Assembly: GCA_963664705.1 (NCBI GenBank)
Contig: OY761556.1
Span: 32,001-96,000 of the forward strand
Length of the DNA stretch: 64,000 bases
Source: Acidobacteriota bacterium
GTDB taxonomy: Bacteria > Acidobacteriota > UBA6911
Direction of reading: 5' to 3'
This document shows, one piece after another, positions 1,455 to 5,856 of this stretch; the first letter of the stretch is position 1; the number at the start of each line of letters is the position of its first letter. The notes under the pieces were generated by a model. The model did no database searches. It saw only the letters and a program-made list of their open reading frames with translations, and was not told the origin of the DNA. The translations under genes and the position numbers were made by a program.

Positions 1455-1522
1455 TTTCGCCCCCTTCAGGGCTCCTATTTTTTTAATATTCTACCAGGGG
1501 TTCGCTCCGCTCACCCCTGGCT
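1455..1522. repeat. REP-like palindromic element, left part, interrupted by the IS
   Basis: CCAGGGG-TTCGCTCCGCTCA-CCCCTGG hairpin ending at the CT where the IS begins; a related uninterrupted inverted copy lies at about 3153-3212. Confidence 0.75.
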
Positions 1523-1613
1523 GATATGGAGTGATCGGTCAAGTACAATCAATCCGTTCCTTGTTCGTTCATTTTGGTTTTCTTCGGTTCATAAATAAAT
1601 CAGCCAGTAAAAA

Positions 1614-1796
1614 GAACAGGGGATCGAGTTGGCAACAGCGACGATAATCAATCTGATATTCGCGGGTCGATAAGCACGCATGACAACTGATTCATCGGGA
1701 GCGGCCTCACTCTACTTCCGTGGATTCTGGTTTCCCATACCAACATAGCCAGGTCGAGGTTTCTCCTTTCGAAGCCTGGAACTCGATCTCCTGTTC
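1614..1796 (-). ncRNA. Putative bridge RNA / seekRNA of the IS1111-type element (ends approximate)
   Basis: 17-bp closing stem with one mismatch (1614-1630 with 1780-1796) enclosing matches to the target (1746-1753, 1712-1716) and to the donor junction (1652-1659). Confidence 0.75.
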
Positions 1797-1868
1797 CGTT
1801 CACTAACCGAATGTTTCCGTTATTAATCCATTGAAGAACAAAATAGCTGCAAGAGCTGGTGCCTTATG

Positions 1869-2963
1869 TCATGCAACGCGACCGATAGCCCAGATAAATC
1901 CTGCCAATTCTCGACTTACCGCAACCGCGATCTTTTGTCTTTCTTTCCCTCGGTTGAGCATGCGTCGGAATTTTTGATTCAATCGCTTATCGCAACGTTG
2001 TGCAATCTCGATAACTTCTGCCGGCAAACACTCTCGTCGTTTCTTGAGAGTTTTGCCAGCTACTGAAGAATGACGGTAGTGCCAGGCGCTTTCGATCAGC
2101 ACCCTACGTAGGTGGCTGTTTCCCGTTTTGGTTATCCTTCCCCGTCTTTCAAGTTCACCTGAGCTGCTTTCCGAAGGCACCACCCCAATAGCGGCCATAA
2201 ACGAAGGCGCATCGACGAACCGTCTTAAATCGAGCGCTTCTGCGATAATCGTCATCGCCGTCAGAACCTGAACACCTTTTAGCGCCATCAAATAGCTGAC
2301 TCGCTTTTGATAGTTCGGCTGTTTTGCAACTTCCTCGATTTTTCCCTGGAATGTTTTCAACCGCTCCGTCTGTTGCTCAAGCGCCTGTCGATATTCCTCC
2401 AGTACTGTTTGATCCCCATCATCCTCAAACACAAGGCTCTTAATCCACTTTAGGTGCCCAAGCGACCAGTTCTTGCCCTGCGGATATTTCAATCCACGTC
2501 GCATCAGAAACCGTGCTAATCGATGCCGTGCTCGCTGCTGGTCTTCCAATGCGTCTTCTCGCGCACGCACCAGATCTCGCAGACTTTCCTGTTCTTTTTG
2601 CGGGATCACAATACATGTTAGTTCTCCCGCTCGGTACAATTTGCCCAAGGCTTTCGCATCCAGCTTATCCGTTTTTACTTTTTTCCCCGCTCGTCTCGGA
2701 GTCAACGAAGGGGCCGCAACATCACAAGAAATCCCATGTTTGGCCAAATAGCGCTGCAAATAGTATCCATTAACGCCCGCTTCGTAGACGCACCGTACAT
2801 CATCTTCAAATGCCCTTAGCTTTTTCGCTAACCGACCCAGCCCCGTACTGTCGTTTGATACAACAAGTTCTTCTCGAGGGTTACTTTCCTGCCCGCGAAA
2901 AATTGCGACGTTTATCTTTTTTGCTGAATCATCCATCCCTACCCAAGTGATACAATCTGCCAT
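1869..2963 (-). CDS. IS110-family DEDD transposase/recombinase
   Basis: WVGMDDS, VYEAG and KTDKLD RuvC-like motifs; C-terminal ESSSG...ITKTGN; RBS GAGGAG precedes the ATG at 2963 (ORF track starts at 2978). Confidence 0.95.
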   Translation of the reverse strand: MADCITWVGMDDSAKKINVAIFRGQESNPREELVVSNDSTGLGRLAKKLRAFEDDVRCVYEAGVNGYYLQRYLAKHGISCDVAAPSLTPRRAGKKVKTDKLDAKALGKLYRAGELTCIVIPQKEQESLRDLVRAREDALEDQQRARHRLARFLMRRGLKYPQGKNWSLGHLKWIKSLVFEDDGDQTVLEEYRQALEQQTERLKTFQGKIEEVAKQPNYQKRVSYLMALKGVQVLTAMTIIAEALDLRRFVDAPSFMAAIGVVPSESSSGELERRGRITKTGNSHLRRVLIESAWHYRHSSVAGKTLKKRRECLPAEVIEIAQRCDKRLNQKFRRMLNRGKERQKIAVAVSRELAGFIWAIGRVA

Positions 2964-3062
2964 GATCGGTCTCCTCATGTTTTATGGCTCTGCAGCTTCG
3001 TCACCACGACTTCAGCTGTAACCCACGATATTACATGCTAGAGACCGATCACTCCATTATGT

Positions 3063-3212
3063 CTACTCTCTTCCGCGCCTCCGGCGCTGGATCTTTGTTC
3101 CATCTATACTAAGCGCCGGGGTTTAAGCGGAAGAGAGTAAATGGAACAAAAATCCAGCCCCGGGAGGGGCGGTCAGAAAATAGCCGGGGGTGAAGCGCAG
3201 CGAACCCCCGGA
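3063..3212. repeat. REP/BIME-like palindrome cluster: right part of the interrupted copy plus an inverted intact copy
   Basis: TACTCTCTTCCGC (3064-3076) pairs with GCGGAAGAGAGTA (3127-3139); GCTGGATCTTTGTTCCAT pairs with ATGGAACAAAAATCCAGC; TAGCCGGGGGTGAAGCGCAGCGAACCCCCGG at 3181-3211. Confidence 0.75.
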
Positions 3213-3242: not shown

Positions 3243-3935
3243 TTAACCTATTTCGGCGAATTTATACCCAAGTCCATGCACCGTGATAATCCACTTCGGC
3301 TGCTTGGGATCCTCTTCCAGTTTTTGCCTGAGCCATGCGATGTGAACATCGACGGTGCGAGTGTACGGTACTGAACTATACCCCCATACTTCCTGAAGCA
3401 ATATCTCCCGGCTGATCGTCTCTCCTTCATGGTCGATCAGATAGCGCAGGAGTTGGAACTCCTTGGCGGAAAATTCGACAGGCTTCCCATCCCGCAGGAT
3501 TTCCGTTTTCTTGAAATCGATTGTCACGGGGCCAAACTGGTGGATACGCGGCGCGGAGGCAAAGGTACGCGTGGCTCTCCTCAAAAGTGCCTCAATTCGG
3601 GCCAGGAGTTCAGGCATCTCGAAAGGCTTGGTCAGATAATCGTCTGCGCCGATTTTGAGTCCCTGGACCTTATCCATTGTCTGGGACCGAGCTGTAAGCA
3701 TCAGAATCGGGGTTGCCATTCCCGAGTTGCGAAGGTCCTGGCATATTTCGTATCCGTTTTTATTCGGCAACATGAGATCGAGGAGAATCAAATCGTAGGC
3801 TTGGTTAAGAGCCTGTTCGTATCCGGACTGTCCATCCGAGGATACCTCGACGATGTAGCCTTCCTTGCGCAGTCTGTCTCCAAGCGTCAAACACAAGCCG
3901 GGCTCGTCTTCAATGAGAAGGATTCTGAACTGCAT
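3243..3935 (-). CDS. OmpR/PhoB-family response regulator
   Basis: ILLIEDE, LILLDLMLP, GADDYLTKPF; winged helix RTVDVHIAWLRQKLE. Confidence 0.95.
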   Translation of the reverse strand: MQFRILLIEDEPGLCLTLGDRLRKEGYIVEVSSDGQSGYEQALNQAYDLILLDLMLPNKNGYEICQDLRNSGMATPILMLTARSQTMDKVQGLKIGADDYLTKPFEMPELLARIEALLRRATRTFASAPRIHQFGPVTIDFKKTEILRDGKPVEFSAKEFQLLRYLIDHEGETISREILLQEVWGYSSVPYTRTVDVHIAWLRQKLEEDPKQPKWIITVHGLGYKFAEIG

Positions 3936-5856
3936 GATTTTGATTTCCTTTGTCGGCAGTCGACCTGCCTGGTAGGTGGATTATAAAAACGCTTCCTTTT
4001 CCTCGTGTGCTCTTGACCGATAGGGTGCCTCCCATGGAAACCACGGCTTCACGCACCATGAACAACCCTAGTCCGGTCCCGTGTATCTGGGCGGCGGAAG
4101 CGGCGCTGCCGCGGTAGAATGGTTCGAAAATATGGTCCAGATCTTCGTGATCGATTCCCATTCCTTTATCCTCGACGGAAAGACGAACCTCGGTGCCATG
4201 TTTTGCCCGTGCTTTTTCCGTTCGAATCATCATCCAGCGACTTTCGCCCGAGTACTTCAAAGCGTTTTGTATGAGGTTTTGAATCACATGTGACAGAGCG
4301 GTTGGGTCCACCTGGACGGCAGGCAATTCCAGGTCAAACCTGGTGTCGACAGTGAATCCCGCGGCCTCAATGGCCGGTTTTGCCTGATTAAGAGTTTTTC
4401 TTACGATGCTATTCAGATCTGTATCGCTGAGATTATATTGCCGACGCCCGGAGCGCACGCTGGCGAACTGCAGAATCTGCTCGATCATTGCCGTAAGCTT
4501 CCTGGCTTCGCCGCGAATGAGCTCTCCGTATTTTCGAGCGGAACCGCCCGAATCGTTGACGATTCCATCCGCAAGGTTGTCTCCGGCGGCGCAGATCACC
4601 GTCAGGGGGGTTCGGAGTTCATGGGATACTCCGGCGACGAAATCAATCTGCAGTTTTGCCAACCGTTGTGCGCGCCTTGCGAATACGAGTACCAAAGCCA
4701 TACTGACGGCCAGCAGCAGGAGAATTCCAAAGCTGATGGCAAGGTTGCGGTATCTGGATCTGGCAACAGCTGCGACCAGAGATCCTTCGCGGTGAATCGC
4801 CAGTACTTCCGCGATAGAACCGTCCTGTTCCAAAACCTGGAGAATTCCTGGCCGTTCCGCTTGCGGCGTTGGTTCCGGCCGGAAGCCGAATCCTGGCGGC
4901 GGAGGTTCCTCTCGCCCCGGTCTTTGCCTCTCCGGTCTGCCGGGATCCCTAGGATCAGGGCCCCCGGGCCCCATAGGATTGCCCGGCCTATTGGGATCAT
5001 TGGGCCCAATGGGTCCGGTACGTTCCCGGCCGGCTTCCAGTAGTCTGATACGCGCATCCGGTTTTGAAAAAGATTCCAGCGTCAGTCCAGGATCTGAAGT
5101 ATACAGAAACTCAGACGGAGTCTTCCCGTTTACCACCGCGATGTGGTAAACAAACCCATGAGAGCCTCCAAAGCACCTTCTGGCAAGTTCCGGGAAGATC
5201 TCCTGGCTTAAGACCTTTGGATTCAGCTGCAGCATGACAAACCCGATGAATCGGCGGTCCGGCCTTGTGCCGGATGGCTGAAACTTCACAAGCGGATGGA
5301 GCATCAGCATACTGTCGAGGTTTACAAATCGGTCAAATGGGCGCAGCCCGCGAATCGGAGGAAATGGTTCCAGAAAAAACCGCATCTGTCGGGTGCGGAC
5401 CGATTCAAACTCGGAAGGCCAGCTTTCAACCTCGAACCTTTTGGTCGCGCGGTTCAGATGATAAAGCTCCGATGCTCCGTTTTCTTTTGCAATCCACAGC
5501 CAGACACCGTGAAGCAAGTGAATGTCGGAGTTGCTCAGAATGTTATCGCAACTCACGGCGTAGCTTTGCCAGTCTTCCTGATTCAGGATTGCCATATCCG
5601 GCTGGAAGAGAAAATCAAGCCTCTGGAATTCACCCTGAAACTGCGCCCGGAACTGATTGAGTGCTGTCAGCAGGCTTGCATGCATGCGCTCCTGCTCCGC
5701 TTCTCCGAGTTGGCCACTCCAGCGGTACTGCAGGATTGCAAGCGAGATCAGGATTGTACAGAGCAGGCCTACCAGGATGATGGAGGAGGCTGTGCTCTTG
5801 AAGAAGCCGCTTCTCGAGCTTCTTGGTATTAAACGATTCCATTGGGAGGTTTGCAC
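3910..5856 (-). CDS. Membrane sensor histidine kinase
   Basis: Two TM segments; H-box VSHELRTPL, N-box NLIQNALKY, G-boxes DKGMGI and GTGLGL; overlaps the response regulator. Confidence 0.93.
   Translation of the reverse strand: MQTSQWNRLIPRSSRSGFFKSTASSIILVGLLCTILISLAILQYRWSGQLGEAEQERMHASLLTALNQFRAQFQGEFQRLDFLFQPDMAILNQEDWQSYAVSCDNILSNSDIHLLHGVWLWIAKENGASELYHLNRATKRFEVESWPSEFESVRTRQMRFFLEPFPPIRGLRPFDRFVNLDSMLMLHPLVKFQPSGTRPDRRFIGFVMLQLNPKVLSQEIFPELARRCFGGSHGFVYHIAVVNGKTPSEFLYTSDPGLTLESFSKPDARIRLLEAGRERTGPIGPNDPNRPGNPMGPGGPDPRDPGRPERQRPGREEPPPPGFGFRPEPTPQAERPGILQVLEQDGSIAEVLAIHREGSLVAAVARSRYRNLAISFGILLLLAVSMALVLVFARRAQRLAKLQIDFVAGVSHELRTPLTVICAAGDNLADGIVNDSGGSARKYGELIRGEARKLTAMIEQILQFASVRSGRRQYNLSDTDLNSIVRKTLNQAKPAIEAAGFTVDTRFDLELPAVQVDPTALSHVIQNLIQNALKYSGESRWMMIRTEKARAKHGTEVRLSVEDKGMGIDHEDLDHIFEPFYRGSAASAAQIHGTGLGLFMVREAVVSMGGTLSVKSTRGKGSVFIIHLPGRSTADKGNQNHAVQNPSH

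Follow-up and report, generated by a model that had tools for sequence, protein, structure and literature searches.

Does the long non-coding region behind the recombinase gene of this locus encode an RNA that guides the enzyme, and if so, to which DNA? The window analysed, 64,000 nucleotides of an Acidobacteriota genome, carries at positions 1521-3064 an intact IS110-family element with IS1111-type ends, which is present in the genome as 11 near-identical copies. RNA-guided IS110/IS1111 recombinases were described as a class in 2024 (PMC11208160, PMC11187229), and the element is very likely a new member of that class. We consider it highly probable that its downstream non-coding region encodes a two-loop bridge (seek) RNA directing the recombinase to CCTGG-CT-ACT at the foot of a host hairpin repeat (REP). 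The observed basis of this reading consists of the ends and cores, the 11 copies with their sites, a conserved loop structure and covariation between guides and DNA. The element sits between convergent flanking genes, by eye a xylulokinase-like sugar kinase (1-1368) and a response regulator/histidine kinase pair (3243-5856).

We analysed the ends and the genomic copies. All 11 full copies measured 1540 bp between two CT cores, and the core was present on both sides in 11/11 copies, with intact paralogous REPs carrying a single CT and no duplication of the target. The cores of the window copy lie at 1521-1522 (right-end side, plus strand; AG on the transposase strand) and 3063-3064 (left-end side, plus strand). 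The subterminal inverted repeat, at 1526-1540 in the right end and 3043-3057 in the left end (both minus strand), is perfect over 15 bp, the IS1111-group criterion being 7-17 bp. It overlaps a -35 box, TTGACC (1542-1537), on the right and a -10 box, CATAAT (3061-3056), on the left, so that by sequence the joined ends give TTGACC-17 nt-CATAAT, a predicted circle-junction promoter; TTGAC occurs near the right end in most homologs. No end-to-end circle joint was found in the assembled contigs of X1, X5 and X6, the raw-read run X19 gave 0 reads over this stretch, and a scan with the sigma-70 consensus, which is blind to a junction promoter and to extended -10 promoters, returned nothing above chance (2 matches versus 1.8 expected).

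Compared with the window copy, the 11 copies differed at 3-17 positions each. The downstream non-coding region showed only one difference among them, located outside the loops, and the recombinase frame was open in ten and interrupted by an in-frame stop in one. The copies at G000 6557036, 6870992 and 1471956 form a second allele with 15-17 differences, and patterns such as a shared change at 2214 look mosaic. In run X1, which may be the source sample, the read depth was 62.4 over the element and 5.7 over its flank, which fits 11 copies. A twelfth site (G000:C1:4125900-4126500) retained only the left end, which just inside the RBS passes into the remaining part of a REP, and looks like a deletion remnant. 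No orthologous empty site was found among 40 relatives, and a search of the genome for an orphan bridge RNA or a miniature element gave 11 matches, all within full copies.

The recombinase gene (1869-2963, minus strand) encodes an IS110-family DEDD recombinase with PF01548 and PF02371 domains and an NF033542 score of 205.8 bits versus a cut-off of 140. As the original prediction held, the enzyme is intact, with the catalytic residues Asp11, Glu61, Asp99 and Asp102 and Ser268 all present in a frame that most copies keep open; its start codon, however, had been placed at 2978 and is more likely at 2963, preceded by an RBS at 2976-2971, giving a protein of 364 amino acids, whereas 330-350 is typical of IS1111 recombinases (PMC11187229). 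Full-length homologs were ISSso6 (38% identity) and ISEc45 (36%), and no mechanistic paper on these plasmid homologs was found among the matches listed. The experimentally tested IS1111 elements ISPa11 and ISKpn4 have by eye different RuvC-domain motifs, so the element appears to lie in another clade. ISCARN28 (ISfinder) belongs to the same recombinase clade, sharing FE/YEAG...KTD..DA..L..L.R..EL motifs and, by eye, 41 of 74 residues in the Tnp domain. It belongs to a set of six for which Durrant et al. 2024 gave bridge RNA predictions (PMC11208160; Extended Data Fig. 10c as well as Fig. 6d), and we place it in the IS1111 group because of the order in the figure legend. However, it is a different element with a different target, its bridge RNA is a prediction only, and the comparison covered the recombinase sequence.

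The non-coding sequence measures 346 nt downstream of the gene versus about 99 nt upstream. Four guide segments had been read from the downstream part, and all were recovered on the minus strand: CCTGGCTA at 1753-1746, AGTAG at 1716-1712, TGTC at 1685-1682 and ATATCAGA at 1659-1652. The empty target CCCCTGG-CT-ACTCTC and the donor junction TTATGT-CT-GATATG were likewise reconstructed. In the predicted RNA, the target-binding loop (1698-1766, minus strand) contains the left guide CCUGG (1753-1749) followed by the core CU (1748-1747), and the right guide AGU (1716-1714) followed by the core AG (1713-1712) and the handshake positions 1711-1710. The donor-binding loop (1639-1697, minus strand) contains the left guide UGUC (1685-1682) and the right guide AUAUC (1659-1655) with the core AG (1654-1653) and the handshake positions 1652-1651. 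The top-strand match thus comes first, which is the IS1111 order of Siddiquee et al. and agrees with the order proposed at the outset. Both loops would be held by a closing stem with its 5' arm at 1780-1796 and its 3' arm at 1614-1630 (minus strand). The 17-bp stem first described retains its two 17-nt arms (1796-1780/1630-1614) but contains one A.C mismatch and therefore forms 16 of 17 pairs, and within the region 1541-1868 originally assigned to the RNA, the structured core covers 1614-1796 only.

The RNA region had a fold z-score of -2.83. Internal pairing in the single-sequence MFE fold involves a large part of both target guides and some of the left donor guide; the open-loop structure therefore rests on the comparative alignment and not on the MFE. 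Over 33 sequences the loop scaffold was 89.4% paired, compared with 26-45% for slid controls, and two-sided changes were seen in 13 of 26 pairs; this 26-pair structure was drawn by hand on the window's row of the alignment before counting, a procedure that gives it an advantage over the slid controls. RNAalifold gave only three helices (15 pairs). Both loops are simple internal loops, whereas many IS1111 elements have a multi-loop donor region, and within the RNA conservation is highest in the donor loop. Rfam contained no family for the bridge RNA or for the left-end hairpin described below.

Guide matches as short as these, 4-8 nt each and only 4 nt for the left donor guide of this copy, could be chance or relics, with targeting being purely protein-based. 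When the region 1541-1868 was dinucleotide-shuffled 3000 times, a core-spanning match of at least 8 nt arose to the target in 51 shuffles, to the donor in 158 and to both in three. Covariation in homologs, which the original prediction had named as its check, bears on this directly. From 80 GTDB loci, 56 with a right end were obtained, making 43 distinct non-coding regions together with the window; guides were taken from alignment columns, with one unit for each distinct guide, and matches were counted over five non-core positions. The left target guide gave 4.10 matches versus 1.28 permuted (27 units; 0/5000), the right target guide 3.29 versus 1.67 (25 units; 0/5000) and the left donor guide 2.88 versus 2.18 (18 units; 3/5000), with null cross-controls, and the right donor guide was uninformative (4.67 versus 4.39; 6 units; 846/5000). 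A held-out set contained 85 loci, 80 of them metagenomic and five from relatives, and 78 matched the profile; here all four guides covaried (0/10,000 permutations each), with the cross-controls again null (5867/10,000 and 4161/10,000). Right ends were found by a first pattern in 37 of the 85 loci and by a looser search in 34 more, and after addition of these 34 the left target guide still gave 3.78 versus 1.46 matches (40 units). As a control for kinship, 119 loci with both guide and flank were reduced to 73 and then to 32 disjoint nearest-relative pairs with different guides, in which 66 differing sites agreed with the locus's own target, five with the partner's and 15 were tied. The guide signal extended about 5 nt to the left and 3-4 nt to the right of the core. 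In homologs, the target guides thus covaried, as did both donor guides to a weaker extent, and the segment UGUC, which had been called weak, occupies the true position of the left donor guide. Covariation at specific positions, found in both data sets and again in phylogenetically independent pairs while the cross-controls stayed null, contradicts chance or relic matches, and we hold purely protein-based targeting to be very improbable.

A different question is whether both loops guide. The predominant RNAs of ISEc11, ISPa11 and ISKpn4 are 82-96 nt long and carry target matches (Siddiquee et al., PMC11187229), so the shorter seekRNA, that is the target loop, might be the sole functional guide, with the ends read mainly by the protein through the subterminal repeats and the donor loop secondary; the weak left donor guide of this copy and a donor handshake departing from the IS621 rule would suit such an arrangement. 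However, in the held-out set both donor guides covaried with the ends of the elements, no part of the RNA is better conserved than the donor loop, and independent changes of the right end were mirrored in the donor guide (L005/L043, L083/L117, L112/L127 and L087). We therefore regard a sole target-loop guide as improbable and retain the two-loop RNA.

The fit between guide and flank was not uniform. Five homologs mismatched their own flank (L062, L060, L032, L089 and L171), and in others from several lineages (the L028 group, L164, L167, L178, L183 and L126) the left target guide fitted only with a register shift of one base. For the guide of L062, the flank type of the relative L169 was a better match than the flank of L062 itself, and it is possible that this insertion was guided in trans by the RNA of another copy. 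In some homologs, the target-side core was GT or TT in place of CT and the guide carried the corresponding change; IS621 tolerates cores of this type. Unequal cores, GT or TT on the target side and CT on the other, were seen in L045, L047, L054 and L143, and the left target guide matched the target-side core where the guide could be read (L045, L047 and L054).

We then turn to what the target guides read. Ten of the 11 copies lie at CCC(T/C)GG-CT-AC, where a RAYT-associated hairpin repeat has its GTAG foot; the remaining copy is not within a repeat, yet its site reads ACCTGG-CT-A and matches the left guide. In the window, the hairpin of the interrupted REP occupies 1494-1520 (plus strand), its last bases CCTGG being the left target, and the remainder, with the right target ACT followed by a second small hairpin, lies at 3065-3090 (plus strand). 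A partner REP in inverted orientation, of the CCCCCGG variant and unoccupied, is found at 3181-3211 (minus strand). A pattern census of the rebuilt pre-insertion genome gave 157 REP-like sites. The guide-matched CCTGG variant was occupied in 9 of 42 cases and the commoner CCCGG variant, one U.G wobble away from the guide, in 1 of 68 (Fisher p 0.0007). The location of ten copies in REPs and the preference for the guide-matched variant agree with the earlier proposal that the target is the REP family of this genome.

The REP bias raises the question of whether the RNA guides suffice, or whether the REP hairpin, or a host protein bound to the REP, must be recognised as well. Only 82 of 212 CCTGGCTA sites passed a loose hairpin test, against ten of 11 copies being in REPs, and a hairpin of at least 6 bp began at the flank in 12 of 17 distinct flanks of close relatives versus 9 of 46 in distant homologs, both of which would suggest structural help. 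On the other hand, the genome has 37 occurrences of the full 10-mer that the two target guides specify, 35 of them in hairpins by a loose test, so that guide sequence alone can explain the bias. The copy outside any REP and the many homologs in non-hairpin sites that match their guides also argue against a structural requirement, and survival bias adds to the excess, since intergenic REPs are harmless sites. A need for hairpin or host-protein recognition thus seems unlikely to us, and targeting by the guides is preferred. Among relatives at 60-83% identity, five left-guide variants were found (CCTGG, CTGGG, CGGGG, CCCGG and CCAGG), nearly always adjoining a flank with a matching stem, and the right guide tracked changes of the foot (CAAAG, AATAG and CTTAG). 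These sequences indicate that in close relatives the guide has been adapted to different variants of this type of hairpin.

The genome's single Y1 transposase gene is flanked by inverted REP copies with GTAG outermost, the arrangement of a RAYT locus (PMC2817692), and is likely the RAYT of this repeat. As it scores at the IS200 TnpA cut-off (55.8 versus 55 bits), the RAYT label rests on the flanks. The gene, at G000:C1:1439500-1440700, encodes 148 amino acids and lies between GTAG REPs of the CCCCCGG variant, the IS110 element preferring the other variant. Rfam Acido-Lenti-1 (RF01687), catalogued as an RNA whose function is unknown (Weinberg et al. 2010, PMC2864571), had 36 matches in the genome, 12 of them above the gathering score (37 bits), and all 36 contained the GG-CT foot of the REP; in this genome it behaves as a DNA REP. 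The interrupted REP of the window is a weak match (3063-3088, score only 19.6). A search of largely open-access literature returned no paper equating Acido-Lenti-1 with REPs.

The handshake bases were compared with those of IS621. The first handshake base of the target loop equalled the first base of the left end in 36/36 GTDB units and in 54/56 held-out loci; the target-loop handshake thus follows the donor end, as in IS621. In contrast, the donor-loop handshake did not track the target; in 26 of 36 units, among them the window copy, its first base is able to pair with the donor base of the element itself. The donor handshake is therefore usually in the configuration that inhibits IS621, where the equivalent change G166A strongly lowered recombination (PMC11208160, PMC11208158, PMC13626964). 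Such self-pairing may act as a brake or may reflect a different geometry.

By analogy with IS621 and ISEc11, and with the known bridge/seekRNA mechanism (PMC11208160, PMC11208158, PMC11187229), rare excision would join the ends into a circle and create the TTGACC-17-CATAAT promoter. One transcript would carry both recombinase and RNA and be processed to the RNA, whose target loop would pair with both strands of the REP foot and whose donor loop would pair with the circle junction. The top strands would then be cut 3' of CT and exchanged, with the exchange aided by pairing of the target-loop handshake base with the incoming donor.

The element resembles IS621 in its CT core, in the order LTG-RTG-LDG-RDG and in the handshake positions (PMC11208160, PMC11208158, PMC13626964), and the natural IS621 target in E. 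coli, ATCAGGCCTAC, is the same position at the foot of a GTAG REP (PMC11208160). The proteins, however, are distant, with only a C-terminal stretch aligning (E 3.7e-6), and the present element differs from IS621 in having its RNA in the right end, a DNA frame that runs inverted to the gene, and long subterminal repeats. With the IS1111-group seekRNA elements ISEc11, ISPa11, ISKpn4 and ISPst6 (Siddiquee et al. 2024, PMC11187229), it shares subterminal inverted repeats, a long downstream non-coding region, a junction promoter and a top-strand match 5' of the bottom-strand match, and a REP is the target of ISPa11 as well. The literature thus already contains the class, REP targeting and the predicted bridge RNA of the clade-mate ISCARN28, and a 2026 preprint modelling 32,190 bridge RNAs (10.64898/2026.10.21.760802) may include this one. 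Beyond predictions, we found no literature on the clade, which the supplements of that preprint or the text and ortholog tables of 10.1101/2025.05.14.653916 may contain. To the known class, the element would add a recently spread and fully mapped bridge-recombinase ortholog. As read here, the clade has been reprogrammed naturally dozens of times, with cores and donor arms among the parts changed, and these cases could serve as a rule book for engineering it; the element is a case of mobile DNA following the variants of a host repeat by editing a few letters of RNA.

The left end of the element has a structure of its own. Its 99-nt leader folds into a conserved hairpin (2964-3050), which on the mRNA strand hides the RBS and the start codon and on the plus strand would be an antisense RNA. 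At least 8 nt of perfect complement were present in 35 of 57 distinct left ends, 19 of 23 pairs showed two-sided changes, and 92 G.U cells versus 23 A.C cells carry the sign of the antisense strand. The pattern TGnTAnnnT in the antisense strand, which we take to be an extended -10 promoter, appears in the window as TG-A-TACAAT at 2948-2956 (plus strand), within the first codons of the recombinase gene. It was found within the first 38 coding bases in 41 of 57 left ends and at most once in each of 19 further windows, and in 26 of these 41 it was located 6-7 nt before the hairpin. Synonymous resampling gave 6.5 expected cases versus 39 of 53 observed, though always in one codon register. The motif UG-Y-R-R...A-N-Y-Y-R-CG, which closes both guide loops, occurred in 40/57 antisense but only 5/57 sense leaders (shuffle mean 5.0), and the antisense apical helix copies that of the guide loops. 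These features lead us to predict that the left end encodes an antisense RNA with its own promoter, resembling a guide loop whose guides are closed. The hairpin would likely hold translation low, a state probably modulated by the antisense RNA.

Each half-loop in IS621 has a conserved A and G that touch the Tnp domain, and because of this we propose that the recombinase may bind the antisense RNA. As a tentative and rather doubtful whole, the clade could be a two-RNA system, in which the left end yields an antisense RNA of ~90 nt that resembles a third binding loop with its guide positions closed by pairing and that binds or titrates the recombinase, and in which Acido-Lenti-1 is a RAYT-associated DNA REP. 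If so, the antisense RNA would couple the enzyme level to translation of the mRNA as a guide-less decoy or a feedback loop, and variants of the abundant Acido-Lenti-1 repeat would be tracked by repeated natural reprogramming of guides; with the predicted guide-less loop, one could test directly in what way IS1111-type elements keep their recombinase in check. ISPpu9 and ISPpu10 are similar in that they are REP-targeting IS110-family elements with a folded 5' leader hiding the RBS and with antisense RNAs, Asr9 and Asr10, over that leader (PMC8450116, PMC12288879). They differ in belonging to the IS110 group and in being without subterminal repeats, and here the leader is about 90 nt and separate from the bridge RNA. 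The text covered of these two papers does not state a likeness of the antisense RNA to a guide loop, and our search of largely open-access literature gave no description of such an RNA in IS110/IS1111 elements.

Long-range pairing between leader and guide loops was considered as the source of the likeness and was unsupported, the helix 5-mer equalling that of the target loop in 12/27 and of the donor loop in 9/27 elements. A search in the reverse direction, with the donor-loop model against the left end, was not significant (partial matches at E 1.6-7.2 in 4/26 loci). In the window copy, the apical helix contains one A.C mismatch. Of 30 other loci, 29 had their left end recovered by the hairpin model itself, loci on Cupriavidus, Bacillus and Alicyclobacillus plasmids among them, and the model's five best matches outside left ends (E 0.001-0.13) were all donor loops.
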